Source: an uncultured Candidatus Saccharibacteria bacterium (GTDB lineage Bacteria; Patescibacteriota; Minisyncoccia; UBA6257; 1-14-0-10-40-38). From it: DNA of 64,000 nt. Numbering within the stretch: the stretch's first letter is position 1; each line of letters opens with the position of its first letter. The position numbers and the translations under genes were made by a program. This document shows, one piece after another, positions 16 to 64,000 of the stretch. The notes under the pieces were generated by a model, which worked only from the letters and a program-made list of their open reading frames with translations, ran no database searches and was not told the DNA's origin. Location of the stretch: assembly GCA_964543265.1 (NCBI GenBank), contig CAZIWN010000001.1:168644-232643 (forward strand), read 5' to 3'.

Positions 16-219
16 TCACTTCGTCGATGTGCTCTCTCCAACAGCCCCAGTCGCTTTTTTACCAGAAAGAGCATTGCCGTTCCCATTTGTTTTGCGCACT
101 CCCCTGCGTGGATCAGGCTTTTTCTTATTACTGATCCAAATCATCACCCCCACCAACGCTCCACAAACCAAAAGCGTGACCAAGAGCCCCGTCAAAGAGT
201 TTTCGGCCAAGAGATTCAT
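16..219 (-). CDS. GC-rich minicassette A: 67-aa small protein with one predicted TM helix (MNLLAENSLTGLLVTLLVCGALVGVMIW...)
   Basis: On the minus strand, TTGACA (RC of 288-293) then AAGGAGA then ATG at 219; GC-rich coding in an AT-rich background; window edge prevents seeing a terminator. Confidence 0.4.
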   Translation of the reverse strand: MNLLAENSLTGLLVTLLVCGALVGVMIWISNKKKPDPRRGVRKTNGNGNALSGKKATGAVGESTSTK

Positions 220-304: not shown

Positions 305-1105
305 TTGTTAATTATTATTACTTATACTTTCTCTTATATGTTTTACGAATCATCTGATGTTTTTAAAAAAGAAGCCGGGCATGAAATTGATGGTGTTTGG
401 TATCCTCGTGTTACTAAAATTTTAGAAATAAAATCAAAACCAGCTTTATATAAATATTATGCAGAAGCTCCTAGCTTTGCGGTTGCGGAAGAAAGAACCA
501 AAAAATCAGCCGAAGAAGGGACATTAATTCACGAAGCTGTAGAAAAAATATTTGTGGGTGAAAAACCGCAAATTACAGACTCGATATCACCCGCCATTTC
601 AGCAGTTGAAGATTTTTTGTCAAAAAATAATTTTCAAGTAGAACGTGATCATGTTGAGAGAAAAGTTTTAAATAAAGAAGAAGCTTATTCTGGAACAATA
701 GACGCCATGGCTATTATAGATGGGAAATTCGGGGTTTTAGATATAAAAACATCTCAGTCTATATATAGAGACTATAATCTCCAAACCGCGGCTTATATGG
801 GTCAATTAACTAAAGAATTTCCACATTTAGAAACCAGATGGATTATGCGCGTTGATCAACAAAAAAACTGCTTAAGGTGCGGTGCCACATTAAGATCAAA
901 AGGAGGGAATGACAAAATTAAGTCTAAAGCTTTTAATTCACAAATTTGTGAAGAAAATAATCACGAATGGTCTCCTCTTAAGGGAATAGTTGAACTCAAG
1001 GAATTTCCATTTTGGAAAAGCGACTATAAGGCATTTTTAGCTGCCAAATATTTATGGCAATGGGAAAATGAATATATGCTTCGTAAAATAGGATATTTGA
1101 AATAA
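305..1105 (+). CDS. PD-(D/E)XK nuclease, RecB/Cas4-like, with C-terminal Cys cluster; true start may be the later Met (MFYESS...)
   Basis: Motifs GTIDAMAIIDGKFGVLDIKTS (D..D/E-x-K) and QTAAY (QxxxY), typical of RecB-family nucleases; a CxxC..C insert near the C-terminus. Confidence 0.55.
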   Translation: MLIIITYTFSYMFYESSDVFKKEAGHEIDGVWYPRVTKILEIKSKPALYKYYAEAPSFAVAEERTKKSAEEGTLIHEAVEKIFVGEKPQITDSISPAISAVEDFLSKNNFQVERDHVERKVLNKEEAYSGTIDAMAIIDGKFGVLDIKTSQSIYRDYNLQTAAYMGQLTKEFPHLETRWIMRVDQQKNCLRCGATLRSKGGNDKIKSKAFNSQICEENNHEWSPLKGIVELKEFPFWKSDYKAFLAAKYLWQWENEYMLRKIGYLK

Positions 1106-1375
1106 AAAAAACCGGGATCAAGAAGTGATGGCGGTAGTCTGTGGAGTTTGCGACGCAAGCTCCGACATCAGACCAAACCACTTCCCGTCCCAGTTGCGGA
1201 TCAAAAAAGAAAACAAAGAGGGGTGAGAGGCGAATCATGGATCCAGCCGGTGCCAATGGCGGATCAAGAGGAATCCATCGCCATGCTTTTTCCCGTGTGC
1301 CCGCGCCAGTCTTATCGATTCGTCCCGCAGAAGAAGCCCAAGCGGTTCACCTCCCACCCCTCTCGAGAACTAAGT
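1105..1375 (-). ncRNA. Candidate structured sRNA B: 14-bp closing helix (plus arms 1217-1230 / 1350-1363) followed by a U-rich tract; no convincing ORF
   Basis: On the minus strand 5' AGAGGGGUGGGAGG pairs with 3' CCUCUCACCCCUCU with one G.U wobble, which would be an A.C mismatch on the plus strand; minus-strand promoter-like TTCTTA-17-TATTAA near 1380-1410; GC-rich island. Confidence 0.3.
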
Positions 1376-1431
1376 TAATAGTAGCACATCATTTTAATAA
1401 GAAAAGTTAATAAACTTAAATTATAAATAAA

Positions 1432-1630
1432 AAAATCAGCCCATCGAGATTTCTCTTTGGGCTGTTGCTGGAAAAAAGCGGAGGCGGGACTCTTGTCCTC
1501 CCAACTTGTTGGGACAGAAGAAGTGCGCGTCGCGAGCGGTTTTCTCTTTCCCGGACATTGCGGCAGGTCGAGGTCGTCGGTTTCTCCCTTGTCGAGGTTT
1601 GAACGGCGAAAAAAGTCCCGCCTCCAGTAA
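1432..1630 (-). ncRNA. Candidate structured sRNA C (6S-like architecture?): perfect 11-bp closing helix 1480-1490 / 1615-1625 plus intrinsic terminator 1432-1470 on the minus strand
   Basis: GGAGGCGGGAC...GUCCCGCCUCC inverted repeat enclosing about 124 nt of GC-rich sequence with internal hairpins; minus-strand TTGAAA-17-TAATAT promoter near 1635-1665; hairpin CAGCCCA..UGGGCUG followed by U7. Confidence 0.35.
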
Positions 1631-1674
1631 GATGATATTACAACTAATTAAAATATTTTTCAACAATCAAAAAA

Positions 1675-1920
1675 CACCCGAAGACCAAAGTCTTTTTCGG
1701 GTGTTGTGAGTTTTGGTAGGGAGGGAGATCTCGTAAGGTCATTTCGCTTCAGTTGATTTCGGCATATGGCTTGCCTTGAGCACGGACCGCAACTTAAGAA
1801 TTGAAGAGTGGCTTGGGGACCACTCGAGCATTTCCGCTATCGCAGCCCTTCTGTCTTGGCGTAGTTTTAGCCTAGTTTCTTTGAAGTTTCCTCTTGCGAC
1901 CTCCCCCTCCCCGTCATGAT
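1675..1920 (-). ncRNA. Candidate structured sRNA D: 11-bp long-range helix GGGGAGGGGGA/UCUCCCUCCCU with a 3' ACCA, then a terminator hairpin
   Basis: Minus-strand promoter TTGCCC-17-TAGAAT (plus coordinates about 1925-1950); G.U wobbles favour the minus strand; terminator ACACCCGAA..UUCGGGUGU + U6 at 1675-1713 (bidirectional). Confidence 0.3.
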
Positions 1921-2019
1921 CTAATTCAATTCTAATACTTGTTTTTATAAAGGGCAACAATATTCTTTTTTTATTGTCATATATCAATCAATGTGTTAAT
2001 TTATTAGGGTATATTTATT

Positions 2020-2092
2020 GGGAGATCGTCTAATGGTAGGACAGCAGCCTTTGAAGCTGTGAATCTTGGTTCGATCCCAAGTCTCCCAGCCA
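2020..2092 (+). tRNA. tRNA-Gln (anticodon UUG), CCA encoded
   Basis: Cloverleaf folded by hand: acceptor UGGGAGA/UCUCCCA, D stem GUCU/GGAC, anticodon stem GCAGC/GCUGU with loop CUUUGAA, T arm CUUGG-UUCGAUC-CCAAG. Confidence 0.9.
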
Positions 2093-2995: not shown

Positions 2996-3706
2996 ATGGC
3001 AGGACAAGAATTAACCTTAGGAATTATAATCAGCGCAGCATTAGTAGACAGTATTAATCCATGCGTCATCGGTGTTTTGATCTTTTTAATAGCTTTTATG
3101 ACAAAGCTTTTCAAGAGTTCAAATAAAATGCTTTTAGGGGGACTTTTCTACACAGCGGTTGTCTACATAACTTATTTAGTTTTAGGCTTAGGTATTTTAA
3201 AGGTAACCGTTAGCATCGGCATAGCTTCGATTTTTTATTGGATCGCAGCCATTATTGCCATAATTGCCGGATTATTAGAAATAAAAGACTTCTTTTGGTA
3301 CGGAAAGGGTTTCACTCTTCAGATGTTTCCTGGTGGAGCAAAAAGATTAGAGTACTACACAGACTCAATTGCTAAAATGGAGAAAAGGCATCCAGCTCTT
3401 CTATTTTTAATGCTTTCACTTTTAGGAATTTTTGTTGTTTTAGTTGAGCTTCCCTGCACAGGCGCTCCATATTTAGCAATTTTAGGAATGTTAGCTCAAG
3501 GTGCATACGCTAAAGCAGTTCCCCTATTACTTATATATAATTTCATTTTCGTATTACCACTTCTTATAATAATAGGACTTTCCTATTTAGGAGTTTCTTC
3601 AAAAAGATTTGAGAGTTGGAGGCATGAGAATAGGGGTATTATGCGTCTATTCATAGGATTACTTCTTCTTGCTCTGGGCTTCTATATGATTTATTCGATT
3701 CAATAA
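2996..3706 (+). CDS. CcdA/DsbD-family thiol-disulfide transporter (cytochrome c biogenesis-type membrane protein)
   Basis: 6-TM protein with conserved Cys in DSINPCVIG and ELPCTGAP, as in CcdA/DsbD; adjacent to the VKOR-Trx gene. Confidence 0.7.
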   Translation: MAGQELTLGIIISAALVDSINPCVIGVLIFLIAFMTKLFKSSNKMLLGGLFYTAVVYITYLVLGLGILKVTVSIGIASIFYWIAAIIAIIAGLLEIKDFFWYGKGFTLQMFPGGAKRLEYYTDSIAKMEKRHPALLFLMLSLLGIFVVLVELPCTGAPYLAILGMLAQGAYAKAVPLLLIYNFIFVLPLLIIIGLSYLGVSSKRFESWRHENRGIMRLFIGLLLLALGFYMIYSIQ

Positions 3707-3736
3707 AATTTCCAAACTTGACTAAGTTGTGATATA

Positions 3737-4453
3737 GTGTTTTTTATGCAAGAAAAATCACTATATCCGATGCGCATAAATAAATATCTTGCCCTTAAGC
3801 AATACTCAACTCGCCGTGGAGCCGATGAGCTTATTCAAAGTAAAAAAGTTTTTATTAATGGAAAATTAGCCGTCTTAGGCGACAAGGTTAACGAAAATGA
3901 TAAGGTAGAGGTTCGTGGCATGGATACTTCAAAAAAATATCTCTATTTTGCTTACAACAAACCATATGGAGTAATCACCCACTCTTCGCAAGAAGGTGAA
4001 AATGAAATCAAAGACATATTCCCCGTCAAAGGAGTTTTTCCTATTGGAAGATTAGATAAGAACTCTAGCGGCCTAATAATTTTAACAAACGATGGCAGAA
4101 TAACTGATAAATTATTAAATCCAGAATACGAACACGAAAAAGAATATATAGTTAAAACAAGAGATAAAATCCGCTCCAATTTTAAAGAAAAAATGGAAGC
4201 CGGAGTTGATATTGATGGTTATATTACTAAAAAATGTAATGTGGATGTTTTAAACGATAATACTTTTAGAATAACCTTAACCGAAGGTAAAAAACATCAA
4301 ATAAGAAGAATGTGTGTGGCTCTTTTTAATGAAGTTTACGAGCTTAAAAGAACTAGAATTATGAATGTTGTTTTGGGTCGTCTCCAGGCCGGAGAGTATC
4401 GTCCCATAGAAGGAAAAGAGCTTTCGATTTTTTTGAAAAGTCTAGGTTTTTAA
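3737..4453 (+). CDS. Pseudouridine synthase, RsuA/RluB family (S4 domain plus catalytic domain)
   Basis: MRINKYLA S4-type N-terminus; catalytic motif GRLDKNSSGLIILTNDG. Confidence 0.8.
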   Translation: MFFMQEKSLYPMRINKYLALKQYSTRRGADELIQSKKVFINGKLAVLGDKVNENDKVEVRGMDTSKKYLYFAYNKPYGVITHSSQEGENEIKDIFPVKGVFPIGRLDKNSSGLIILTNDGRITDKLLNPEYEHEKEYIVKTRDKIRSNFKEKMEAGVDIDGYITKKCNVDVLNDNTFRITLTEGKKHQIRRMCVALFNEVYELKRTRIMNVVLGRLQAGEYRPIEGKELSIFLKSLGF

Positions 4454-4456
4454 ATT

Positions 4457-5458
4457 ATGAGATATAATATTAATATGCTTAAAAAAATATTTATTTTAAT
4501 TATTGTTACTTCTCTTGGTTTCGGTTCATTTTTTTTATTTAAAAAAATAAATAAAAACCAATCCAAAAATATTAAACAAATTGATAAGGTATCAAAAAAT
4601 ATATCCCCAATAACAGAAAAAGAAAACAAGGAGAATACCGTTAGCGATATTACTCCCCAAAAAGATACCTCATTAATTTTCTATGATGGATTTGAGCTTG
4701 GAGATAGATTGTCTGATGGTTGGAATAGTTTTTTAGTTCATGCCCCAACAAGCGACGAGCTTAAAAATTGTCCCGATTATCCAAATGGCTCAATGCAAAA
4801 ATATATTCTTTGCTCTCACGCCTTCGATCTAGTTACATCTCCGGTTCGCTCTGGCAAATACGCCATTAAATTTACAGTTAATCCCGGAGACACAGCAGTT
4901 CCAGGAGATGCAGAAAAATTAAAAGACAGAGCAGAGTTGCAGCGTAAAGAATTTGGAGATGAGGGTAAAAACGGAACAGAATTTTGGTACGGTTGGAGCG
5001 TTTTAATTCCTAAAGATTATAAATATGATCCAAACGTAGATACTCTTCAAATAATGGGTCAATTACACGTTTATGATCAAGGAGAAGCAACCATTTCCCC
5101 ACCAGCTTCAATAGAATATGGCATGAAAAACGGAGAGCACTTTATTTATGCCGATTATGGTCTTAAAAATATAAATAAAGCTCATATCGCCATTTCCCCT
5201 ATTAATTTGGGAGAGTGGATTGACGTTGCTATCCATATCAAATGGTCAAATGAAAACGATGGTTTTATAGAAGTTTATAAAGACGGCAAAGCCATAACTC
5301 CATTTAACGGAAAAGATTACAGGGTTTATGGACCAAATCTTCCCAATTCATATTCTCAAAGTTTTTTTAAGATCGGTCTTTATCGAGGACACGGAGTTAA
5401 AACAACAAATAGCGTCTACTACGACGAAGTTAAAATAAGTAAATCAAAATTCTTTTAA
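4457..5458 (+). CDS. Secreted concanavalin-fold protein, PL7 alginate-lyase-like
   Basis: N-terminal signal/TM; the three PL7 signature blocks are present: RAELQRKE (RxELR), QLH (QIH) and FFKIGLYRG (YFKAGxY). Confidence 0.45.
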   Translation: MRYNINMLKKIFILIIVTSLGFGSFFLFKKINKNQSKNIKQIDKVSKNISPITEKENKENTVSDITPQKDTSLIFYDGFELGDRLSDGWNSFLVHAPTSDELKNCPDYPNGSMQKYILCSHAFDLVTSPVRSGKYAIKFTVNPGDTAVPGDAEKLKDRAELQRKEFGDEGKNGTEFWYGWSVLIPKDYKYDPNVDTLQIMGQLHVYDQGEATISPPASIEYGMKNGEHFIYADYGLKNINKAHIAISPINLGEWIDVAIHIKWSNENDGFIEVYKDGKAITPFNGKDYRVYGPNLPNSYSQSFFKIGLYRGHGVKTTNSVYYDEVKISKSKFF

Positions 5459-8897: not shown

Positions 8898-8951
8898 AAT
8901 GGAGTTGATCGAGGATTTACTAGTTTTTACCACAAGAAACGCTCGTTTCTG
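8898..8951 (+). CDS. 17-aa leader-like uORF (MELIEDLLVFTTRNARFW) in GC-rich minicassette F
   Basis: Starts about 10 nt after TTGACA (8865-8870) / TAATAT promoter; followed by a GGAAU..AUUCC hairpin and then the Cys-rich ORF; speculative. Confidence 0.2.
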
Positions 8952-9006
8952 GTGAAGACAGGAATATCCTCACATTCCGCTAAGCGCGGAAAGAAAGGCT
9001 CGTAAG

Positions 9007-9111
9007 ATGAATCTCTTCGGCAAGTCTCGTTTCGACCTGGTCGCCTCCATCTGCTCCGACTGCGTCAAGGGCGACCACTGCGGCGGTTGCAACTGCTGCA
9101 AGCATCGCTGA
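9007..9111 (+). CDS. 34-aa cysteine-rich peptide (MNLFGKSRFDLVASICSDCVKGDHCGGCNCCKHR), GC-rich minicassette F immediately downstream of lexA
   Basis: Upstream promoter with TTGACA at 8865-8870; a 17-aa leader-like uORF (8898-8951) lies between promoter and this ORF; RBS-like AAAGAAAGG; 7 Cys in 34 residues; terminator hairpin UAGCCAACUU..AAGUUGGCUA at 9118-9150; below the ORF-track length cutoff. Confidence 0.4.
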   Translation: MNLFGKSRFDLVASICSDCVKGDHCGGCNCCKHR

Positions 9112-9164
9112 GATCAAATAGCCAACTTTCATTAGCAGTGGAAGTTGGCTACAATTTTATTAAA

Positions 9165-9608
9165 ATGAAAAACAAAATAGATAAAAAAATAAAACCTACC
9201 GTTTTTATTCTGAATAAGTTAGACATAAAAACTACTGGCTCTTGCGAAGGGCATATTTCTTATGGTTCGCCTTGTCCATGGATAAAAATTTCAGAATCAA
9301 TTGATAATAATTTAAAAAAAGAAACGATTAAATTAATAAAAGAATTTTATAAAAATAAAAAAATAAATAAGAATATAAATCTAAAATTAAAGGATGGAAA
9401 ATCCGGATTTTGGCTTTATACTGGCCCTAAAAAAGATTTTGAAAATTGGCGAAAATTAGTTGATAAAACCGCAAAAACTATTTCCAAAGGTAAAACTCCG
9501 GAAAAATATATGATATCTGAAAAGGAAAAGGGATTTAGAAAAATTAATTTATTAAAATATCAGCAAGAAATAAAAGAATTTACAAAATTTTTAAAGACTA
9601 AAATCTAG
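9165..9608 (+). CDS. Hypothetical Lys-rich protein (track ORF 9087 has an upstream extension; probable start MKNKIDKK)
   Basis: AT-rich host-type codons begin at 9165; the upstream part of the track ORF is GC-rich terminator sequence of cassette F. Confidence 0.4.
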   Translation: MKNKIDKKIKPTVFILNKLDIKTTGSCEGHISYGSPCPWIKISESIDNNLKKETIKLIKEFYKNKKINKNINLKLKDGKSGFWLYTGPKKDFENWRKLVDKTAKTISKGKTPEKYMISEKEKGFRKINLLKYQQEIKEFTKFLKTKI

Positions 9609-9610
9609 TA

Positions 9611-11095
9611 TTATTTCTCTAAGTCTAAGACCTCATCAATTCTTATTTGATGCACGAATTCTTTAACGTGGCTAACTAAAACCATCGCTCCAGTAAATTG
9701 GCTCAATGCTTCGGCTATAACTGGGATATGCCTAAAGTTAATATGATTTGTCGGCTCATCCAAGATTAAAAGCCCAGGTTTTTGCAAAACCAACTGCGCA
9801 AAAGCAACTAATCCTTTTTGTCCTTCAGATAAATGTCCAACTTTTAATTTCATCATATCTCCGGTAATCAAAAATCCTGCCGCCACAGATCTCATCTGGT
9901 GATCATCTTTTATTTCCATCACCGAAATTAAAGTGTTATAAACCGTATCTTCAAAATTAAGCGTAGAAAAATCTTGCCTATAATAACCAACTTTAATTCC
10001 CGGCAATATTGTCGCTCCTTTAGCCGTCCCATTGGCGATAGATTCTAATAAGGTACTCTTTCCAATTCCATTTGGGCCTTGCAAGAGTAAATGCTGGCCT
10101 CTTTTTAGATATATCTCTGCTTTTTTAGTGACCGGCTTGTGGTCGTGAATGATCTTAAAAGAAGTAATCGTTAAAATTTTACCCACAATATCTTCCTGTG
10201 AAGGAATAATAAATTTCCTAATAGTTTTATCTTCTTGTCTGGTATCAACCTTTTCCTCTTCCATTTCTTCCACGGCATCTCTCATTCTTTTAGCCACCAA
10301 TCTCATCTTTCCCCCTTTATGAGCGAAGAAATTTGCCTTATCTTTATTTTCTTGGATTTCTTTTTCTAATTGGGCATTTTTTCTATTTTCTTTTTCAATT
10401 CTAGCAGCAATATCTTTAACCACATTAAAATAGTTTCCAGCATACTGCTCGATTTTCTTAGTAAACACATCTAAATATAAAACTCCATCTGAAAATGCAT
10501 TTAAAAAATCGGCATCGTGCGAAATTACCACGCAAGTCTTTTTATAATCAATCAAAAACTTAGTTAAATGCTCAATTCCCGCCTTATCAAGGTTATTTGT
10601 AGGCTCATCAAGTAATAATAAATCAGGATCTTGGATTAAAGCAGAAGCTAAAAGCAATCTTGCCTGTTGTCCGCCAGAAAAAGATTTAACAATCCTATCG
10701 TGTGGCGCTTTTAAATTAACAACCTCCAAAACCGCATCAATTCTTGGATCAAGGTCATAAATTTTATCTTTACCCCCAGCAATTTTTTTATAAGTGCTTT
10801 TAGAAAAAGATTTTTCAAAAAACTCTCTCACCGTCAAATCCATTTGATCTCTTGGAATAACTTGTCTAGCGGTCGCAATAGTGAGCCCATTATCCATACT
10901 TATTCTTCCCGTCTCTGTTGTAAATTCTCCGGTAATAAGTTTAAAGATTGTGCTCTTTCCGGCTCCATTTTGTCCCATTAAAGTCACCTTCATACCTTTT
11001 CTTAAACTAAAACTCACCTCATTTAAAATGGGTTTATTTGGGCCATATTCAAAACTAACTTCATCAAATCTTAAGATTACTTGGTCGTTTGCCAT
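9611..11095 (-). CDS. ABC-F family ATPase (tandem ABC domains, EttA/Uup-like translation factor)
   Basis: Two Walker A motifs (GQNGAGKST, GPNGIGKST) and two signature motifs (FSGGQQ, LSEGQK); the track N-terminal 28 aa (to 11179) read through a terminator hairpin; probable start MANDQVILRF at 11095. Confidence 0.85.
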   Translation of the reverse strand: MANDQVILRFDEVSFEYGPNKPILNEVSFSLRKGMKVTLMGQNGAGKSTIFKLITGEFTTETGRISMDNGLTIATARQVIPRDQMDLTVREFFEKSFSKSTYKKIAGGKDKIYDLDPRIDAVLEVVNLKAPHDRIVKSFSGGQQARLLLASALIQDPDLLLLDEPTNNLDKAGIEHLTKFLIDYKKTCVVISHDADFLNAFSDGVLYLDVFTKKIEQYAGNYFNVVKDIAARIEKENRKNAQLEKEIQENKDKANFFAHKGGKMRLVAKRMRDAVEEMEEEKVDTRQEDKTIRKFIIPSQEDIVGKILTITSFKIIHDHKPVTKKAEIYLKRGQHLLLQGPNGIGKSTLLESIANGTAKGATILPGIKVGYYRQDFSTLNFEDTVYNTLISVMEIKDDHQMRSVAAGFLITGDMMKLKVGHLSEGQKGLVAFAQLVLQKPGLLILDEPTNHINFRHIPVIAEALSQFTGAMVLVSHVKEFVHQIRIDEVLDLEK

Positions 11096-11119
11096 GTCGG
11101 GATATAATATAACATTTTT

Positions 11120-11175
11120 ATATAAAAGAAAATGGCCCGAGGAGTTGCTACCGTAGTAGCAGCCCCCAGGGCCAT
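11120..11175 (-). terminator. Compound intrinsic terminator of the GC-rich 154-aa gene
   Basis: Minus-strand AUGGCCC...GGGCCAU stem with inner GCUGCUAC..GUAGCAAC, followed by UUUUCUUUU. Confidence 0.5.
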
Positions 11176-11196
11176 TCATTGTTCTGCGGTTGTAGT

Positions 11197-11661
11197 TCAG
11201 GCGACCGCGAGCGCCTTGGCGAGAGCTGCACCGAGCGACCCACGGTGGATGCGATCCACCGAAGCCACGGCGGCCCTCAAATCACCGACCGGCATGTCCG
11301 GCCTGGAGACGATCTGCGCCCTGCGAACCGGCGCGACCACCTTCGGACGTTTGGGCTGCGCGACAGGGGCCGCCTTCAGGATCCGAAGCGGGCTCACCAC
11401 GAGGATGAAAACCCTCTTCATCACGTAGGCACCGATGATGTTGAGGCTCTGCACCTCCCACATCTCGCCCGCCTTCGGCTGGTAGGTGGCACCACGGTCG
11501 ATGACGACCTCGGCGACCCATCCGTCGGAGAGGTCCTCGAGTCGGCCCTTCAGCTGCGGCCCGCCCAGCGTGGTGTTGGTCCCGACGAAGAACGTGACCG
11601 CGAACCGCGGCGGCGTGATGTTCCGAATCGCCCGGTCGAGACGCGCATCGAGAAACGCCAT
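11197..11661 (-). CDS. GC-rich minicassette G: 154-aa hypothetical protein with Ala/Pro/Arg-rich C-terminus
   Basis: Minus-strand TTGACA-18-TATAAT promoter (plus 11736-11765), RBS GAGAGGG, own terminator; antisense ORFs in this island look like low-complexity junk. Confidence 0.4.
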   Translation of the reverse strand: MAFLDARLDRAIRNITPPRFAVTFFVGTNTTLGGPQLKGRLEDLSDGWVAEVVIDRGATYQPKAGEMWEVQSLNIIGAYVMKRVFILVVSPLRILKAAPVAQPKRPKVVAPVRRAQIVSRPDMPVGDLRAAVASVDRIHRGSLGAALAKALAVA

Positions 11662-11871
11662 CGGTATACCCTCTCGAAATCCTTCATTCCCTCAAGCGCC
11701 ATCTTGCGACAGCAGAAACTCAAGGTACTTCCTATATTATATCATAATATATCTATATTTGTCAATAGATATACAAATAACCCTTAATTTTAATGATTTT
11801 ATCAACTATTGACTTATATATTAATTATTGCTATAATTAGGAACAGAACAAGGTCAAAAAAGGAGAACGTC

Positions 11872-12090
11872 ATGATTCACTGGTTCCAGGTCTGCGACGT
11901 CGTGGAGGCACTTCTAGACATCACCACTCCCGGTTTTGGCAACGAAGGCACCACGATTTTCAAGGGAACACGGGGAATCGTGGAAAAAATTCTCCGTTCA
12001 GAAGGCAACCTCAGGGTTTCCTGGGAGTTGGGATCAAGTCAGACCATCAGCTTCGTCGTTGCTGAAGCTGGGGTCAAAGCAATCGGCTAG
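11872..12090 (+). CDS. GC-rich minicassette H: 73-aa hypothetical protein, divergent from G
   Basis: TTGACT (11809-11814)-17-TATAAT (11832-11837), RBS AAAGGAGAA, ATG 11872; compound terminator AGCGCCGC..GCGGCGCU + U-rich at 12094-12160. Confidence 0.45.
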   Translation: MIHWFQVCDVVEALLDITTPGFGNEGTTIFKGTRGIVEKILRSEGNLRVSWELGSSQTISFVVAEAGVKAIG

Positions 12091-12152
12091 TAAGAGACTA
12101 GCCGCCGCCAATAAGCGCCGCAAGTTCGAGCATATCGAACAAGCGGCGCTTT

Positions 12153-15100
12153 CTATTTCAATAAACTCTCTTCAAACGCCTTTATTCCGTTTATATCTTT
12201 CGAAAATTCAGATATATCTGGAAAATCCAGATTTTTTATTCTTTTATATATAACTTCTATCAATTTTCTCATTCTCTCAACCTCTTTATTTTCAATTTTC
12301 AATTCCAAATCAATTATTTTCCCTTTTTCTGGTTCTATAAATTCAATAATCCCTTTATTCATAAAATATTTACCGCCAAAGTCTTGGGAATTTTCAACTA
12401 ATAATTTATAAAATATAAGCTGATTCCTATATTTCCAAGCTTTAATTTTGTCGTATTTATCTTTTGGCTCCCAATCTTCTATATTTTTTCCAGTCTTAAA
12501 ATCAGTCACCACAATCTCAAAATTAATTAATCTCATTTTATCAATCTTCCCAGTTAGATGTGCTTCTCCTAAAACCACTCCCTGATTTTTAAAATTAAAT
12601 TCGATTTTATCTTGCGACAAGAAATCAGATTTTTTATTTTCATAAAACACAGCTAAAGATTTCTTACCCCTGCCAAGCATTAAATTAAAATCTTTCTCGT
12701 TTAATCTTTCATTTATTAATAACCTTTCAAATCTTAATAAAATTTCTTCTATATCTGGTAAAGATTCTTTATTTTTTAAATAATGATAAATAAATTGAAT
12801 TGTTCCATGGATTGCCGAGCCATAAGCCCCAGAAGGAGTTTTCGGTTCCGGAAACATTAATAAATTCTTTTCCAAAAAAGCTAATGGCCCCGCATCTGCC
12901 ACGTTTAAAAAGTTTTGAAAATGAGTCACGCTTAATTGATATTTTTCCAACATTTTATCAAGTAAAGCTTTTTCATTTTCAACTATTGGTTTAGCAAAAT
13001 TAACACTCCAATTATTAATAGCTAATTGCTCCGCGCTTTCTTTAAAATCATTAACGCTTATTTCTTTTTCCTCAATTAAGCTCTTTTCTCCAATTTCTGG
13101 ATGTAAGAATTCCAGTTTCACACTATCTTTTCCTCTGGAATCTTTTTTGTAATAAGTTAAATATAATTTTTTCTTTGTTCTAGTTATTGCTGTATAAAAC
13201 AATCTCAACTTATCATCTTGCGTATCTCCGGCAGGATTAATACTAAGATTCATAGGCATCGGTATATCTCGACTACTCCTTCCACTATTCCAAACATCTT
13301 CTTGGCAATTAATCACAAAAACCGCTTCAAACTCCAATCCTTTTGCTTTGTGTGCCGTTAATAATTGAACCGCTTCATTAGAATTAGAAAAAGCGCTTAT
13401 ATTATTAATTGGAATATTGTTTTTAATATGTAGGTCAAAAAACTCCAGCATATCTTTAACTTTCAATGGTTTTCCACGGTGATACTCTCTTAAACTTCCA
13501 AAAAAAGATTGCAAAGATGATAAGAATTTCAAATAATCAGCTCTTTTCTCTTTAAAAACAGATTCTCCAAAATAATAAGATTTAAAACCGGTATTAAATA
13601 TAGCCCTTGCCTCGCCAGAGCTGTAGGTAGAAGGCGGGTCATCATTATCTTCATCTGGCAAAACCAAATCAGTTGAACCTATAAGCTCATGAAGTATTTC
13701 TTCTGCGGTTTTATAATTTATTTTTCCGCTTAAATCTATAAAGAAGTTAGCTATTTCGCTAAATTTTCCTCCCATTTCCCTCATTATCGCTAACCACGGC
13801 TTATGTTCTGCCCTAGCTTTAATAGAAATATCCCAAATATTAACCCTATCTATTCCCCAAAACGGATAACTTAATATTTCCGGCAACAAATCATCCGCCT
13901 CTTCTTCTTTTCGCATTATAGAATTGGCAAATCTCGCCATAGTTACAAGTTGAACAATATGGGGTTCATTTAAAACATTTTGTTCTCTCTCATAAGAAAC
14001 TGGTATTTTTTTATTATGAAAATGTAAAACTAATTGCTCCAAATCTTTATGTTCGCGGGCAATAATCGCAATTTCATTTTTTGTAGTGCCGGATTTTATC
14101 AATCTTTCAACCTCCTCAGCAATCCAAAAATATTCAGCTTCTCTATTAATAAATTCCAAACCTAAAATCCCAGAATCATCTTTTTTATTATTCTCTGCAA
14201 TTAATTCTTTTTTTAAATCAGTAATTACATTTTCTAATCTATTCTTTCCTTTTTTAATAACTCCTAGCGCCACATTTAAAATTTCTTGCGTTGATCTATA
14301 GTTTTTCTTTAAGGCAATTAAATTTACGTCTTTATACTTCTTTTTAAAATCAAAAATATTAGATATTTCTGCCCCCTGAAATCTATAGATCGCCTGATCA
14401 TCGTCTCCAACAACCATTATATTTGGCCTACCTTCATTTACATCATTATCAGTCAATAAATGAAGTATTTTCATCTGGGCATCATTAGTGTCCTGAAATT
14501 CATCCACTAATATATATTGATATCTTTCCTGCAGATCTAATTTTACGCCGATGTTGTTCTGGAGCATTGTAATCGTGTCCAAAATCATATCGTTGTAGTC
14601 GTAATAATTATTTTTTTTCATACTACCCAAATAATCCTCATATATTTGAGCTAAAGCATTCATTTTTTCCAGATTAACAAAATCTTCCAGATGAGTTTTT
14701 TTGTCATCTCCCTTAACGGTCCAATCTTTTTTCCATTCGGTTATATATGTAGTGGATTTATCTTCTTCTGATTTCTGCAACGCCACTGAAAGCGAGTTAA
14801 CTAAAACATTATTATATTCTCCAGTATTTTTATTCTGAATATTCTTTATTAATTCATAAATACCAGGAAACATTTTTTTTGAAACCCTATCATTAAAAAC
14901 CTCGCCGATTAATTTATCAGAAAACTCTATCTCTTTTTTATTTTTCTCCAGTATTTTTTTAAATTCAGCAGGCGAAATTCCCGCTTTTTTTAGATTCTCA
15001 ATCGCTTTTTTGGTTTTATATAAATAAGTAAATTGCTCCTCGTGCTTTGATGCTAGTGGATTTCTATAATCTAAAGATTTAAAAACATCTTCTAAAATTT

Positions 15101-19631: not shown

Positions 19632-20045
19632 ATGATATTTTCAAAAACACTTATCCTAATTTCATTATTGGGATTAATCAATGCTCTTTACTTAACCTAC
19701 AAACACTACTTCACAAAAAAGCCACTAGTCTGTTTAGTCGGCGAAAATTGCGAAGCAGTTCTTGATAGTAAATGGAGTCACATGTTCGGAGTTAGGAATG
19801 AAATTCTCGGAGTTTTATTTTATGGTGGAATCTTTACCGGATCTTTAATTTTATTTTTCTATCCACTATTAATACCAAATTTATTATTCTATTTATTTAT
19901 AGGAAGCATTACCGGGGTTTTATTTTCTGGATTTTTAGTAGCGCTTCAAAAATTCGTCATTCATAATTTTTGTTTTTATTGTTTAATCTCCGCCGGATTA
20001 AGCCTATTACTTTTCATTAATTGCGCTTACTTATTTTTATATTAA
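19632..20045 (+). CDS. VKOR-family membrane protein (second copy)
   Basis: Loop cysteines CLVGENC and CFYC active site in a TM helix. Confidence 0.55.
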   Translation: MIFSKTLILISLLGLINALYLTYKHYFTKKPLVCLVGENCEAVLDSKWSHMFGVRNEILGVLFYGGIFTGSLILFFYPLLIPNLLFYLFIGSITGVLFSGFLVALQKFVIHNFCFYCLISAGLSLLLFINCAYLFLY

Positions 20046-20067
20046 AAGAGGGGTCCTGATGGACCCC
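20046..20067. terminator. Bidirectional terminator
   Basis: AGAGGGGUCC UGAU GGACCCCUU hairpin shared by the convergent plus-strand VKOR gene and the minus-strand GC-rich operon. Confidence 0.6.
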
Positions 20068-20259
20068 TTATGAGAACTGAAGACGAAGAACCTGAACGAA
20101 CACACATGGATCAAGATGCTTCTTCCTCCTTGCCTTGAGACAGGCTCTAAACCTAGCCTGTCTTTCGGACACAGCAGTCGACTCAACGGTAACAATTTCT
20201 CCGCTGGGACACCTCACGGAAGCGGAGAAGTTGCGCCACACAGCCGGTGCACGCTTCAT
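20068..20259 (-). CDS. GC-rich minicassette J gene 2: 63-aa basic protein (MKRAPAVWRNF...), translationally coupled to gene 1
   Basis: ATGA stop/start overlap at plus 20256-20259; RBS GGGAGGGGAG inside gene 1; the track ORF has a 7-aa upstream extension. Confidence 0.4.
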   Translation of the reverse strand: MKRAPAVWRNFSASVRCPSGEIVTVESTAVSERQARFRACLKARRKKHLDPCVFVQVLRLQFS

Positions 20260-20471
20260 GGAATGAATCTCCCCTCCCAAAGAGCAAACTCTGGGGACCT
20301 AGAGATGACGTCAATCGCCACCCAGTCAGAGCTTGGAACTTCGTTTTCTGTTTTGAATTTCTCCAAAACAAAGACTCTAGCCCATTTTTCAGACGAAGCA
20401 CAAACCCTCACCTTATAAGTGCATCTCCTCCATGAAACAAGGGCAGACCAAGCGACCGATCTTCTGGCCAT
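20256..20471 (-). CDS. GC-rich minicassette J gene 1: 71-aa protein (MARRSVAWSALVSWRRCTYKV...)
   Basis: Minus-strand TTACAT / CATAAT promoter and RBS AAGGAGATGAGG then ATG at 20471; its stop overlaps the next start as ATGA. Confidence 0.4.
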   Translation of the reverse strand: MARRSVAWSALVSWRRCTYKVRVCASSEKWARVFVLEKFKTENEVPSSDWVAIDVISRSPEFALWEGRFIP

Positions 20472-20596
20472 CTTGGACTCCTCATCTCCTTATTGTACTA
20501 ATATAATTATGGCACATGTAAATATATCTCATCAAGATCTTGTTTCTATATAAACAATAGGTATAATCTTAGTATTAATTTAAAAAATAAAACCAA

Positions 20597-34204: not shown

Positions 34205-34378
34205 GTGTTAATTTATTTAAACCAATAAGTCGTCGCCTAAAATTCTAAGCAGTCGCTAGTCAGGCCGACTTCTAGGAATTTTATGTGACGATAATTGTGC
34301 GAATTTCGTCGGGGGACGAAGGTTCGCAAGCCAGATAGAAGACGCTCCACGGAGGGTCAACCATCTGGCTATTTTTTT
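34205..34378 (+). ncRNA. Candidate structured sRNA L: GC-rich island with nested hairpins and a strong intrinsic terminator; no ORF
   Basis: Hairpins AGUCG..CGACU and GCGAAUUUCGUCGGGGGACGAAGGUUCGC, then GCCAGAUAG..CCAUCUGGC + U7 (34326-34378); weak TTGATT / TAATTT promoter near 34186; strand from terminator orientation. Confidence 0.3.
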
Positions 34379-34673
34379 ATCTTATTTTCAATACTAAATT
34401 AATATAATCCCCAGATTTAATTCCCTCCTTTTTTCTAATTTCAGATTTCAACGGTAATAAATACAAGCCAGATTTTTTATCCGGAAAGATAGACGTCTTC
34501 CAAGATGTTTTCCCCGCAACCACAAAAACGGGCAACGATCCCCAACCTCGCTTTATCTTATTAAATTTATTTTTTATATCTATAGATATATCTTTTGGAA
34601 TACTTATAAAGTGCCATCCCGCCATTCCAGGATAAAGCCAGACTTCCGATTTAATTTTATATTTAGAATTCAC
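34377..34673 (-). CDS. Hypothetical protein (possibly DUF1905-like)
   Basis: Host-type composition; weak recall only. Confidence 0.4.
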   Translation of the reverse strand: MNSKYKIKSEVWLYPGMAGWHFISIPKDISIDIKNKFNKIKRGWGSLPVFVVAGKTSWKTSIFPDKKSGLYLLPLKSEIRKKEGIKSGDYINLVLKIR

Positions 34674-39323: not shown

Positions 39324-39376
39324 TCTGTTAGTAAGCCATAATTGACTTTATATAACATACTTGCTATTATAGACGT

Positions 39377-39860
39377 CAGCACCTGTGACCGTCCTTTGTT
39401 CTGGATTTCCAATTAGGCAGACAGTTCGGGCGATGCTGTCTATGCGGAGATTCGAATGAGTCGGTCTGTTACGCTGTCTGGTCTCGTTCTTTTTCACAGC
39501 GAGGCTTGGAGGAGCCTCTTCTATGCGCGCACCGTGTTGATCCGTTTCCCGAGGGTCGCTCTGAAGTTCCTTCCCACTCCTCGCTTTGCGAGAACTTTCT
39601 GGCAACTGATCGTTCAGGGCTGGAGACTGCTTTGCAGGATCCTTGATTCTGAACCCGTTACCATGATGTTCCTGGCACTCCTGCTGCTCGGGGTCGTCAC
39701 GATGCGTTCGTGCGATCCGACGGCCGAAGAGCTGAGAGCGATGGAGTCTTCTTCCGGCACCCTCCTTCCGTGATCTGATCGGAGTCGACATCTTCTCATG
39801 CGTAGCATCTGGGTAGTGAGCGCCTTCAAACCTGCGGGTTCTGGGGGCGTTTTTTTTAGA
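39377..39860 (+). other. GC-rich minicassette M: promoter TTGACT (39377-39382)-17-TATTAT (39400-39405), about 430-nt GC-rich transcript, U-rich terminator about 39835-39858. Possible 105-aa ORF 39456-39773 (RBS GCGGAGA; single TM-like segment)
   Basis: Coding versus non-coding unresolved; the antisense 174-aa ORF (39348-39872) is low complexity and has no room for a promoter. Confidence 0.3.
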
Positions 39861-39880
39861 AAAATTGACCAATTAATTAA

Positions 39881-41633: not shown

Positions 41634-42131
41634 CTATTCGCCCATCACCTCAAGACGATCGAACAGAGACTTGAACCAAGAGAGAGCACCAACTTTTCTT
41701 GCAACCCTATTACCCATACCAGGGCGCATCTGACAAAAAGAGACAGCAAAAGCAATAGTTATTGCAGAGTCTATCTCGGGAGAAATCCCAACAAAGGCCA
41801 CAACGAGTCCACTATGACTCACAGCTCGGGATTCCGCGGGTGGAAGAGCAGCTGAAGATCCAGCGACCCTAACAACCATCTCTCTTGCGACAATACAACT
41901 TCGCGAAGCTGTTGGATTATGAGGAATTGTTCCAATCCTCGCGCAGATAACTTCTTGGCCTGTATCACTATTAGCAAGACAGAAGTATCCGCCACTGACT
42001 TCACCAAGCTTGAATACCCTTCTTGCCTGCTGGAAAATCATGCCAATCCGCGAAACAGCATCTGCAGAATTAGCAACAATAGCGACAGTAGTAGCCCCAT
42101 CTCTCTCAGCGACCATCGTCGGTTGAGACAC
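41634..42131 (-). CDS. GC-rich minicassette N: approximately 166-aa hypothetical protein, possibly Ntn-hydrolase/proteasome(HslV)-like (GATTVAIV after a short propeptide)
   Basis: Minus-strand TTGACC-17-TAATAT promoter abutting the upstream gene stop; RBS AAGGGGAGGA then GTG (42131); the track ORF starts at an upstream TTG; weak similarity to HslV RRV..G..AG..D block. Confidence 0.35.
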   Translation of the reverse strand: MSQPTMVAERDGATTVAIVANSADAVSRIGMIFQQARRVFKLGEVSGGYFCLANSDTGQEVICARIGTIPHNPTASRSCIVAREMVVRVAGSSAALPPAESRAVSHSGLVVAFVGISPEIDSAITIAFAVSFCQMRPGMGNRVARKVGALSWFKSLFDRLEVMGE

Positions 42132-42214
42132 GCCGATCCTCCCCTTTTTGGCAGGTTTTTTGGAAACTTCAAAGAGCTGAAACAATATTAAATTAATAAA
42201 ATAAACTGGTCAAT

Positions 42215-42940: not shown

Positions 42941-43064
42941 CAAAAATAAAATACCCCTTCTGGGGTTGTTTTATTTTTGTTTTGAAATGGATCGAACCGA
43001 AGGTCAAAATCACGCAGTGATGAGATTTCGACTGAAAGGAGAAGCGATCCCTACCTCCGGAGCC
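42936..43064 (+). repeat. Direct repeat copy 1 (129 bp): tRNA-Asn 3' end + terminator (ACCCCUUCUGGGGU + Us) + 65-bp spacer + 21-bp tRNA-3'-end mimic gcgatccctacctccggagcc
   Basis: Identical by eye to 43503-43631; the mimic recapitulates ttcgatccctacctccggagca of the tRNA (att-like). Confidence 0.75.
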
Positions 43065-43146
43065 GATATTTGACAATAATATAACAGTATGCTATTATCC
43101 AGATAGTTCCGAAAGTTAAAAATCGAGCAGGAAAGCGAGGTTAGAA

Positions 43147-43320
43147 ATGGATACGCAAAAACTCGTGGAACTCGTACGCCAATGCACAAAAATCGTCGTT
43201 AGAGAAGGGCAGAATACCACTGGCGATATGTCCGCTGTGATTCCCTTGCTACAAGCTGCGCTGAGAGATTTGCCCTCCGATCAGGTCCAGAAGGCCATTC
43301 TCGAATACAACAATGATTAA
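43147..43320 (+). CDS. Cassette O: 57-aa hypothetical protein (MDTQKLVELVRQCTKIVVREGQNTTGDMSAVIPLLQAALRDLPSDQVQKAILEYNND)
   Basis: TTGACA (43070-43075)-17-TATTAT (43093-43098), RBS AAAGCGAGG, ATG 43147; dual-hairpin terminator 43362-43435; GC-rich. Confidence 0.45.
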   Translation: MDTQKLVELVRQCTKIVVREGQNTTGDMSAVIPLLQAALRDLPSDQVQKAILEYNND

Positions 43321-43502
43321 GACAAGTAATACTGCCTAGGAACGTCCTGATATTTCGATATGTGTCGCGCAAAGCGACACGCCCCCCCCCGTTGGAGGAA
43401 TTTCGATGATTTCTCCCGGGGGCTTCGTTTTTTTATCTCAAATCGGGAATATAAATATATTCATTTTGTCGTGCTATAATATTTCTAATATCCGATACTG
43501 TT

Positions 43503-43631
43503 CGGAGCAAAAATAAAATACCCCTTCTGGGGTTGTTTTATTTTTGTTTTGAAATGGATCGAACCGAAGGTCAAAATCACGCAGTGATGAGATTTCGACT
43601 GAAAGGAGAAGCGATCCCTACCTCCGGAGCC
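43503..43631 (+). repeat. Direct repeat copy 2 (129 bp), identical to 42936-43064
   Basis: Same sequence, including the terminator and the 21-bp tRNA 3'-end mimic. Confidence 0.75.
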
Positions 43632-43700
43632 ACTTATTTGACAATATTATTTATATATGATATTCTTTTTATAGAACAATTTCCAACAAGGAGAGAAGAG

Positions 43701-43898
43701 GTGCACCGCTATCTCATTACAATTTCGTTCACGCCCGGTCGAGATGGATCTGAGAGAACGACGGAGTGTTACGAAGTGAGTATGGAGCAGCCGATTCGTT
43801 CCATGGATCAACTCAATGCAGAAATCAGGAAGCTCTGCGATGTAAAAAAGATTGCTGGGCACGTGACCCCGATTGCGTTTTCTCGATTCTCCGAATAA
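43701..43898 (+). CDS. Cassette P: 65-aa hypothetical protein (GTG start; VHRYLITISFTPGRDGSERTTECYEV...)
   Basis: TTGACA (43638-43643) promoter homologous to cassette O, RBS AAGGAGAG, GTG 43701; the track ORF 43533-43898 runs spuriously through the repeat. Confidence 0.4.
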   Translation: MHRYLITISFTPGRDGSERTTECYEVSMEQPIRSMDQLNAEIRKLCDVKKIAGHVTPIAFSRFSE

Positions 43899-43920
43899 CT
43901 CAAACCAGAGGAGACGTCCC

Positions 43921-44094
43921 GTGAATCAGTCCAGCGGACAGGAACCGAAAGTTCAACAGGAAAAGCCGCGACAAGAATTCCCTCCCTGCACCAACAAGGA
44001 ATGCGAGTGCTATGAGTCTTCTGCTCGTGTCGGGCCAGCTGCATCGATCCCGCGCGCCTACTACTGCTACGAGTGCTGCAACATCTTCTTCTGA
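43921..44094 (+). CDS. Cassette Q: 57-aa cysteine-rich peptide (..PPCTNKECECYESSARVGPAASIPRAYYCYECCNIFF)
   Basis: RBS GAGGAG 6 nt before GTG 43921; 7 Cys in the C-terminal 36 residues; terminator 44110-44177 homologous (about 78%) to cassette O terminator. Confidence 0.4.
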   Translation: MNQSSGQEPKVQQEKPRQEFPPCTNKECECYESSARVGPAASIPRAYYCYECCNIFF

Positions 44095-44206
44095 TGCGAA
44101 TTCTAATATATCGCGCAAAGCGCGAAACCCCCGGTTAGAGAAATTTAGATGATTTCTCACGGGGGATTCTTTTTTTGTCTCAAATGTAGTGTGATATTAT
44201 TACAAT

Positions 44207-61103: not shown

Positions 61104-61147
61104 TTTAATATTGAAAAATATTTTTAAAAAAGCTATAAATATAAATA

Positions 61148-61335
61148 GTCCTTCAAACCAGTTCAGGGAGAATAAGCTTGGGGAAAAGACGGGTTCGCCG
61201 CGAAGCACGAATGTCTGGCATCTGGAAGCGATTCACTTGCAGGCTGATACGGACAATCGCGTGGGCTAGGGTTCGCCCCTAACCAAGCTTCGCAAACCCC
61301 TCTCGCAGCCGAAAGACCTTCGGCTGCTTTTTTTT
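61148..61335 (+). ncRNA. Candidate structured sRNA R: closing helix AAGCUUGGGG...CCCCUAACCAAGCUU, then terminator module
   Basis: TTGAAA-17-TATAAA promoter (61112-61140); no ORF; terminator GCAGCCGAAAGACCUUCGGCUGC + U8 (61292-61335). Confidence 0.3.
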
Positions 61336-61410
61336 ACTTGAAAAATAACTAATATAATGCTAAAAAACATATAGCCCTTCAATTTCATCGCCAACCAGGA
61401 GGAATTCAAA

Positions 61411-61755
61411 TTGACCCAAAAGAAGAAAGGCGGCGAAATTAAAACAATTAAGCCGCTGATGGATCCTCTTACTGATCCCGCAACTGCAGGAATCAGAAGA
61501 CAGATTCAGGTACAGATCCGAAGGCTTCAACAAGGAGACGGCGTCGAGAAAACTGGTCCGAAACAGACCAAGCATAAGTGCGCGACACCTCGTTGCAAGG
61601 GACGCCTCGTCGAAGACATCTGCCATGAGTTCGACCCCACTTCGGGACCACCTATTATCGGTCCCGGCTCCAGATCACAGTTCAACAGAGTTTCTCGTGG
61701 CTTCTACTGCAACACCTGCGGCGTAAAATATCAGTTCCCTCCAAAGAAGAAATGA
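61411..61755 (+). CDS. GC-rich minicassette S: 114-aa basic zinc-ribbon protein (TTG start)
   Basis: RBS CAGGAGGA 7 nt before TTG 61411; C..C(x3)C and C..C pairs; flanked by duplicated terminator module. Confidence 0.4.
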   Translation: MTQKKKGGEIKTIKPLMDPLTDPATAGIRRQIQVQIRRLQQGDGVEKTGPKQTKHKCATPRCKGRLVEDICHEFDPTSGPPIIGPGSRSQFNRVSRGFYCNTCGVKYQFPPKKK

Positions 61756-61769
61756 GCTCTTGCTCATTT

Positions 61770-61812
61770 CGCAAACCCCTCTCGCAGCCGAAAGACCTTC
61801 GGCTGCTTTTTA
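61770..61812 (+). terminator. Second copy of the 45-nt terminator module CGCAAACCCCUCUCGCAGCCGAAAGACCUUCGGCUGCUUUUU
   Basis: Near-identical to 61292-61335. Confidence 0.6.
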
Positions 61813-63694: not shown

Positions 63695-63779
63695 ACATAC
63701 ATATTACTTTAAAACCCTTAAAAACAAAAAAGCGCCGTATCCGAATTGGATCGTGCGCCTTTGAAATCATTTGATGCCG

Positions 63780-64000
63780 TAACAACACAAGCAGGTGCCA
63801 CAATGGCCATGCCCCTCAAAACAAAGCCTGCATGGACGAGAACGAATGTGAAACAAGACAAGCAAATGCGCCAAGAGTTTCATTTTTCATTCCCCCTGAA
63901 AAGAATCGAAACGATTCAGATCAGCTCCTCACAGCAAGGACATCCTCCGCAATGCCTGCCCCTCTTCGGGTCACAGTCCGAACAGAAACCGAAGCCAAAA
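63780..64000 (+). other. GC-rich island at the window edge; open reading frame from ATG about 63804 (MAMPLKTKPAWTRTNV...) continues beyond the window
   Basis: Composition switch like the other minicassettes; truncated, so cannot be assessed. Confidence 0.15.

Follow-up and report, generated by a model that had tools for sequence, protein, structure and literature searches.

Three consecutive GC-rich units, here called B, C and D, lie between a nuclease gene and a gene for tRNA-Gln in contig CAZIWN010000001.1 (assembly GCA_964543265.1). We conclude, with a probability of roughly 0.75, that they are three separate genes for stable, structured, non-coding small RNAs (sRNAs), which are transcribed independently and do not form one sequence family. 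The stretch of DNA that was analysed, called the window below, is 64,000 nt long and has a GC content of 34.4%; its host is an AT-rich Parcubacteria/Paceibacterota genome of the candidate phyla radiation (CPR). The anatomy and strand of the units, their lack of coding potential, their conservation above the neutral level and the covariation of their paired bases were all observed in this analysis. Three islands of 50-61% GC, with AT-rich spacers between them, stand out at positions 1105-1925 of the window and reach peaks of 0.53-0.61 GC in 120-nt windows. Base composition, inverted repeats, folds and transcription signals thereby confirm the original prediction that three tandem, structured, GC-rich units are encoded on the minus strand beside tRNA-Gln. 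Their parts are as follows, the ends of the RNAs being inferred.

1104..1371, minus strand: unit B RNA (about 265 nt), with a closed multi-branch domain on the 5′ side and a long hairpin on the 3′ side
1378..1405, minus strand: unit B promoter, TTTTCT-16-TACTAT with a TG upstream (extended -10), from a pattern scan
1217..1236, minus strand: unit B closing helix, C/U-rich 3′ arm of the RNA, from the inverted repeat and pairing
1344..1363, minus strand: unit B closing helix, G-rich 5′ arm of the RNA (GAGAGGGGUGGGAGGUGAA), from the inverted repeat and pairing
1112..1194, minus strand: unit B 3′ hairpin of about 30 bp, abutting the nuclease stop codon; its U-tract is the plus-strand A-run at 1104-1111
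1429..1628, minus strand: unit C RNA (about 195 nt), not seen in any other genome
1635..1663, minus strand: unit C promoter, TTGAAA-17-TAATAT, from a promoter scan
1480..1497, minus strand: unit C closing helix, 3′ arm of the RNA, from the inverted repeat
1608..1625, minus strand: unit C closing helix, 5′ arm of the RNA (GGAGGCGGGAC...), from the inverted repeat
1429..1464, minus strand: unit C terminator, hairpin 1437-1464 and U-tract 1429-1436, from sequence and fold
1669..1922, minus strand: unit D RNA, about 250 nt, a long rod with a G-rich/C-rich closing helix and a terminator
1929..1957, minus strand: unit D promoter, TTGCCC-17-TAGAAT, from a promoter scan
1719..1737, minus strand: unit D closing helix, 3′ arm of the RNA (...GAUCUCCCUCCC), from the inverted repeat and pairing
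1893..1911, minus strand: unit D closing helix, 5′ arm of the RNA (GGGGAGGGGGAGGUCGCAAG), from the inverted repeat and pairing
1669..1704, minus strand: unit D terminator, hairpin 1675-1704 and U-tract 1669-1674, from sequence and fold

The three units share one build, in which a promoter is followed by a G-rich 5′ arm, a C-rich 3′ arm and a terminator. If at least 16 of 18 Watson-Crick pairs and a spacing of 60-260 nt are required, the region contains two inverted repeats (in B and C), against none in 200 dinucleotide shuffles. In unit B the repeat pairs 1217-1234 with 1346-1363; read as minus-strand RNA it forms a helix of 19-20 bp, rather than the 14 bp originally proposed, and two of its G.U pairs would be A.C mismatches on the plus strand. 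The perfect 11-bp helix claimed for unit C is borne out by 12 perfect pairs and a further extension, and the 11-bp helix of unit D was found on the minus strand as 11 contiguous pairs, two of them G.U. By contrast, the ...CCCUACCA ('CCA') end of unit D, which the original prediction had given, is not conserved in the orthologues, and a tRNA-like CCA end was rejected for this reason. All three units fold more stably than their shuffled versions (-106.6 kcal/mol, z -3.6 for B; -73.5 kcal/mol, z -3.3 for C; z -4.05 for D).

The minus strand is assigned to the units because promoters, terminators and conserved G.U pairs all indicate it. Promoter boxes of the form TTGNNN-17-TANNNT had been claimed for every unit. 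They were detected at C and D, but unit B instead carries a TG-extended -10 element (TGcTACTAT at 1378-1386) without a TTGNNN -35 box. A hairpin followed by a minus-strand U-run is visible, in sequence and folds, in every unit and every orthologue, so that the terminators proposed for each unit hold; the 3′ hairpin of unit B with its U-tract is, to judge from its sequence, an intrinsic terminator. A consensus terminator scanner reported no terminator, and its loop limit of 3-8 nt does not alone explain the miss. The expected restriction of G.U pairs to the minus strand is clear for unit B and mixed for unit C and for unit D outside its core. In B, several invariant G.U pairs are valid on the minus strand only, including some in the conserved helices 6 and 7 of the 3′ hairpin. 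Across genomes, the minus strand folds better by 6-23 kcal/mol in 7 of the 10 units examined, and the G-rich arm is at the 5′ end in 10 of 10. This 5′ bias, we infer, could reflect an initiation preference, avoidance of C-rich Rho-loading sites or protection of the end.

Evidence for function comes from related genomes. The closest relatives of the neighbouring nuclease, at 89-90% amino acid identity, are encoded on five contigs representing four distinct relatives; those named here are L006 (a Lake Baikal metagenome-assembled genome, or MAG), L086 (Hainich groundwater) and the near-identical L092 and L093, which count as one relative. The nuclease gene is 82-84% identical to theirs in nucleotide sequence, and its four-fold degenerate sites are only 36-47% identical, so synonymous sites are saturated and neutral DNA should no longer align. 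Units B and D can still be aligned, and their location and orientation are unchanged: unit B has orthologues in L092, L093, L086 and L006 (blastn 65% over 271 nt; nhmmer E 1.8e-14), and unit D in L092, L093 and L006 (blastn 78% over 93 nt; nhmmer E 4.3e-16 over the full length). Because both outlast the saturation of synonymous sites, B and D are clearly functional. Their transcription signals are kept as well. The TGCTAnTAT block of the unit B promoter is present in L006, L092 and L086, the unit D promoter is conserved in L092 and L006 as TTGCAT-17-TATAAT, and the orthologues of unit D have other hairpins, then U-runs, at the place of its terminator.

The pattern of substitutions points to RNA structure. 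A consensus of unit B from the window, L092 and L086 holds 64 pairs with 92% of cells paired, 20 of them changed on both sides; none of 500 shuffles reaches any of these measures, and controls with slid partners give 1-4. For the closing helix of B in the window, L006 and L086, the figures are 20 pairs, 94.9% paired and 5 compensatory changes. The three-genome consensus of unit D comprises 35 pairs with 4 compensatory changes overall; its closing helix (helix 1) has 19 pairs, 94.7% paired, and one G.U pair that is invariant in all three genomes. Covariation analysis with homologues, a check named in the original prediction, therefore yields compensatory changes in both RNAs (20 of 64 pairs in B, 4 of 35 in D). 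All three copies of unit D fold as rods of 167-217 nt, and D is the unit with the best conserved ends.

The Rfam scan named in that prediction assigned the units to no family. Rfam 15 returned only tRNAs, whether at the gathering threshold, at E ≤ 10 in the 1.1-kb region 1000-2100 or at E ≤ 1 in the whole window. Under gathering as well as permissive thresholds, the hits in 13 related loci were limited to tRNAs and a single 23S fragment, in L064. ARAGORN found no transfer-messenger RNA (tmRNA), and the Rfam models of ribonuclease P (RNase P) and signal recognition particle (SRP) RNA had no match, in agreement with the absence of such signatures noted by eye. Searches of phage and plasmid records (blastn 'distant') gave no match, there were no PHROG hits, and an exact-pattern scan of IMG/VR with the conserved unit D block gave 0 hits. 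The 16 IMG/VR matches to a 17-mer of unit B, mostly in GC-rich phage contigs, were discarded as chance, with no extension past the seed (nhmmer E 3.5). Nor are B, C and D similar in sequence to one another or to the rest of the 64-kb window. The suggestion that the three units are one family is thus not supported: B and D are two distinct conserved RNAs, and C is unique to this genome.

In the model that we favour, each gene would be read from its own sigma-70-type promoter to its own intrinsic terminator. The G-rich 5′ segment of the transcript would then pair with the C/U-rich 3′ segment and close the RNA body into one domain, a closed-end build that would be typical of long-lived RNAs, with ends shielded from exonucleases. 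B and D would have been inherited vertically in a genus- or family-level clade of Paceibacterota under purifying selection on structure, and C would be a recent, lineage-specific gain at the same site. The RNAs probably act in trans, as protein-binding or regulatory sRNAs. The most concrete guess, by analogy with 6S RNA, is that the rod of unit D may sequester RNA polymerase or another protein.

Several observations weigh against these conclusions. The three transcripts are predicted from sequence, and for unit C just two predicted features, promoter and terminator, suggest the minus strand. Unit C in fact folds better on the plus strand (-84.6 versus -73.5 kcal/mol), as do L006_U1 and L003_U1, a unit of a more distant relative described below; these make up the 3 of 10 units with the better fold on the plus strand. 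No orthologue of C was found, and neither L006 nor L092 has a counterpart. At one position in a unit B helix, one genome has U.G where another has C.A. Each of the conserved RNAs is represented by 3-4 orthologous genomes and each alignment by three sequences, and the covariation statistics are optimistic because the consensus structures were derived from these same few sequences. In 735 kb of Parcubacteria loci, covariance models of the B hairpin and of D picked up nothing beyond the sequences on which they had been built. Finally, no target, partner protein or conserved functional motif was found, a target search with the conserved single-stranded block of D remaining at chance level.

Other readings of the locus have to be weighed against three sRNA genes. 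Unit D, or another of the three, might be the divergent 6S RNA of this lineage, which would sequester sigma-70 RNA polymerase by mimicking an open promoter. D and its orthologues are indeed rods with a long terminal helix, the window copy has large internal loops in mid-rod, D has its own promoter and terminator in addition to its well conserved ends, and the 64-kb window offers no other 6S candidate. However, 6S models had no match at the gathering threshold, at E ≤ 10 in the 1.1-kb search or at E ≤ 1 in the window, nor in the orthologous loci. The large loops are confined to the window copy, the central open region being conserved in neither L092 nor L006, and a canonical 6S gene may lie elsewhere in the genome, as the search covered 64 kb. 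We therefore consider a 6S identity unlikely, and the '6S-like' part of the 6S/sRNA-like architecture in the original prediction applies only to the rod shape of D. A protein-coding role, with the units as small (moron-like) cassettes, could be imagined since the same genome has many GC-rich cassettes composed of a promoter, an open reading frame (ORF) with a clear Shine-Dalgarno (SD) site and a terminator, and since GGAGG occurs inside the G-rich 5′ arms. Yet no start codon lies at usable spacing from GGAGG, and the inferred transcripts contain no ORF of at least 15 amino acids with an SD site on the transcribed strand. The longest ORFs, of 30-40 amino acids, are hydrophilic, lack an SD site and are not conserved, and Pfam gave no hits for any ORF of the region. 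Indels between orthologues (1-nt ones and one of 37 nt) leave no reading frame intact, plus-strand ORF starts are not conserved, and substitutions keep base pairs instead. Coding cassettes are accordingly highly unlikely, and the original view that the ORFs here are artefacts without ribosome-binding sites is upheld. These ORFs also argue against type I toxin mRNAs, or similar messages whose ribosome-binding site is hidden by a 5′-3′ long-distance interaction. Such a reading would fit the pairing of the 5′ GGAGG arm with the 3′ CCUCC arm, by which the transcript ends are joined over a long distance, and the tandem, independently transcribed and fast-evolving nature of the units; but no short hydrophobic ORF follows an SD-like motif and no antisense partner is evident, and we give it next to no weight.

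The units might also act at the level of DNA, as insertions resembling miniature inverted-repeat transposable elements (MITEs) or as recombination sites near a tRNA gene, rather than as RNAs. Terminal inverted repeats of 18-20 bp around 110-155 bp, the adjoining tRNA gene, the varying number of units between relatives and the presence or absence of C in close genomes would all suit such elements. Against this, no unit recurs in the 64-kb window or as an additional copy in the 735 kb of related loci. B and D keep one location across four genomes, and their sequences have drifted apart in step with those genomes. Promoters and terminators have been retained, and the conserved G.U pairs can form on a single strand only. 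We therefore rate a role at the level of DNA as very unlikely. For unit B in particular, the terminal hairpin begins 7 nt past the nuclease stop codon in the window, and a GC-rich convergent unit abuts the nuclease gene in L092, L086, L006 and L003, with analogous cases in L013 and L029. B might thus work mainly in cis: converging on the nuclease gene as an antisense or terminator module, it would shape how the nuclease mRNA ends on its 3′ side. We allow this a slender chance, given that the hairpin has no U-run on the plus strand, that a separately conserved 5′ closed domain with its own promoter would be unnecessary for termination and that most of the more distant relatives carry no such unit. 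Among further candidates, a retron msr-msd RNA was rejected because no reverse-transcriptase gene adjoins (among neighbours within about 10 kb), and readings as an integron attC site, an rRNA fragment or a tRNA fragment were considered and rejected. Small proteins, type I toxin mRNAs, MITE-like DNA elements, a retron RNA and a purely cis terminator role each lack at least one defining feature that was looked for. Three independent genes for structured sRNAs remain our preferred explanation.

The place of unit C is taken in L006 and in L092/L093 by a palindromic element, GATATCCTGCGGATAAG, present in 1-2 copies between the orthologues of B and D. It may be an operator or a recombination site, and it is absent from the window. 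Its copies are:

L006 5212-5228: palindromic element, one copy
L092 6094-6110 and 6133-6149: palindromic element, two copies
L093 3419-3435 and 3458-3474: palindromic element, two copies

Beyond the closest relatives, the arrangement changes quickly. The number of units is 2, 3 or 4 among relatives. In L003, whose nuclease has 68% amino acid identity, the nuclease gene is followed by four minus-strand units of analogous build (G-rich 5′ arms, terminators); none is similar to the units of the window by blastn or nhmmer, and the unit D model gave a weak full-length match to L003_U3 of only 3.8 bits. A scan of a genome collection gave 80 loci, in which synteny is lost below about 65% amino acid identity, and a metagenome scan yielded a single close relative on a short contig. 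Most of the more distant relatives are without any such unit. In L013 (4760-5075) and L029 (4780-5100), GC-rich minus-strand units with purine-rich 5′ arms and terminators directly follow the nuclease gene, their sequences being unrelated to B, C or D. A common GC-rich motif, ..CCTCAACCCGCTTCGCTCGC..TCCTCGGC.., is found directly after the nuclease gene in more distant Parcubacteria (L025 3990-4110, L052 4775-4900, L069 4775-4900 and, more weakly, L068 1320-1440) and has no Rfam match. The 23S fragment of L064, a Paceibacteria MAG, is an isolated 92-nt piece at 4883-4975, downstream of the nuclease gene, which corresponds to positions 2125-2216 of bacterial 23S rRNA.

The two genes that border the units in the window are:

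305-1105, plus strand: PD-(D/E)XK-type nuclease gene, left neighbour, with its stop codon at 1103-1105
2019-2092, plus strand: tRNA-Gln, right neighbour

The nuclease has more than 1700 homologues, the source names being Parcubacteria, Paceibacterota, Wolfebacteria and similar. Within about 10 kb of the units lie genes for the PD-(D/E)XK nuclease, tRNA-Gln, VKOR-thioredoxin, a pseudouridine synthase, a polysaccharide lyase, SHMT, DHFR and LexA, and the other flank (L002) encodes FemAB, a peptidase M23 and orphan genes. A small GC-rich ORF of 67 amino acids (16-219, minus strand) directly precedes the nuclease gene. It has a TTGACA-17-TATTTT promoter, an AGGAG SD site and a single stretch predicted to span the membrane; L003 has an analogue in a small, GC-rich membrane ORF at 9630-9940. 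Upstream of the nuclease locus in the host genome, L002 carries a pair of GC-rich orphan protein genes (3324-4022 and 4114-4653, both minus strand), and L092 has an upstream GC-rich orphan pair (1630-2286 and 2375-2920, both minus strand) of similar sizes, about 180 and 220-230 amino acids. Neither pair has a recorded Pfam hit, and the L002 pair is also without a PDB sequence match.

About a dozen further GC-rich islands, with 50-70% GC, occur in the 64 kb. Small ORFs account for many of them, equipped with an SD site, a terminator and a promoter of the consensus type TTGACA/TATAAT. Islands and examples of cassette ORFs are listed here.

8923-9171: GC-rich island
11090-11751: GC-rich island
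11828-12192: GC-rich island
20041-20501: GC-rich island
39354-39880: GC-rich island
41634-42187: GC-rich island
43120-44172: GC-rich island
61132-61817: GC-rich island
63715-64000: GC-rich island
11872-12090, plus strand: cassette ORF
20256-20471, minus strand: cassette ORF
20068-20259, minus strand: cassette ORF
43147-43320, plus strand: cassette ORF
43701-43898, plus strand: cassette ORF
43921-44094, plus strand: cassette ORF
61411-61755, plus strand: cassette ORF

Ten GC-rich ORFs of these islands had no Pfam or PHROG match, and all cassette payloads tested are orphans. The most GC-rich ORF (11197-11661; 67% GC, 154 amino acids) has only two homologues among 5.8 billion proteins. Identical or nearly identical flanks surround different payloads: 42950-43064 equals 43517-43631, 43360-43433 resembles 44106-44176, and 61289-61332 equals 61768-61811. 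The reused pieces are a 115-nt upstream block with the promoter, and terminator modules, and it looks as if expression frames were being reused for different cassettes. Some islands may not be coding. The stretch 61160-61340 (plus strand) is GC-rich, has no convincing ORF, contains a closing helix (AAGCUUGGGG...CCCCUAACCAAGCUU) and ends in a terminator identical to that of the coding cassette downstream; this stretch is possibly a further structured RNA. Strong folds also mark two GC-rich promoter-to-terminator stretches on the plus strand, 34215-34385 (171 nt) and 39375-39870 (about 500 nt), the latter overlapping weak ORFs on both strands. An ORF at 9007-9111 (plus strand) would encode a cysteine-rich peptide of 34 amino acids (MNLFGKSRFDLVASICSDCVKGDHCGGCNCCKHR); the GC-rich cassette around it also comprises a terminator and a leader that is long and structured. 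B, C and D could conceivably be the non-coding members of this genome-wide population of cassettes, which might serve as a cassette-exchange system or a reservoir of accessory genes, with RNAs and small proteins as products that act on the host cell or on phages of the presumed episymbiont instead of serving housekeeping regulation; we regard this wider interpretation as doubtful. The pattern of cassettes with reused modules nonetheless raises the question of how reduced symbiont genomes gain and express accessory functions.

CPR organisms are mostly known from metagenomes only, and a literature search found no papers on regulatory RNAs in CPR/Patescibacteria. The units described here would be new genes for bacterial sRNAs, a class of RNA that is already known; none turned up beyond this genome and the few close relatives that were retrieved, and B and D could anchor covariance-model searches across Paceibacterota. 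If D should prove to be an analogue of 6S RNA, it would fill a gap in the set of housekeeping RNAs of this lineage.

Among known systems, 6S RNA (ssrS; Rfam RF00013 and relatives) resembles the units in its length of about 200 nt, its own promoter and terminator and the long closing stem at its ends, and unit D in particular in its overall rod shape. It differs in that the units have no covariance-model match, the orthologues of D share no conserved central bubble and three unrelated RNAs stand side by side. Tandem 'sibling' sRNA loci, such as Listeria LhrC1-5, Vibrio Qrr and the streptococcal csRNAs, consist of short (about 100 nt) paralogues with a common seed sequence. They too are head-to-tail sRNA genes, each with its own promoter and intrinsic terminator, and their C-rich, anti-SD-like stretches recall those found here; the present units, however, are 195-265 nt long, have no common sequence and lock the C-rich stretch in the closing helix. 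Phage 'morons' are autonomous insertions of promoter, gene and terminator with a deviant base composition. The likeness lies in the self-contained promoter-payload-terminator cassette, in a GC content sharply off that of the surroundings and in the identical flanking modules reused in this genome. Unlike morons, the units have a non-coding RNA as payload, sit in the chromosome among housekeeping genes outside any prophage context and, in the case of B and D, are vertically conserved. The type I toxin mRNAs hok and aapA1 contain a 5′-3′ long-distance interaction, and the units share with them paired transcript ends around a GC-rich structured body and the pairing of an SD-like with an anti-SD-like segment, but have neither a toxin ORF nor an antisense RNA. 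In outline, two reports describe the GC-rich intergenic regions (GC-IGRs) of AT-rich genomes as enriched for structured non-coding RNAs (PMC8723152, PMC11109978). Although B, C and D match no described family (Rfam 15 was negative) and were found only in the few close Paceibacterota contigs retrieved, GC-rich islands with covariation in an AT-rich genome are exactly the signature that this GC-IGR/DIMPL approach, as outlined in those reports, exploits.

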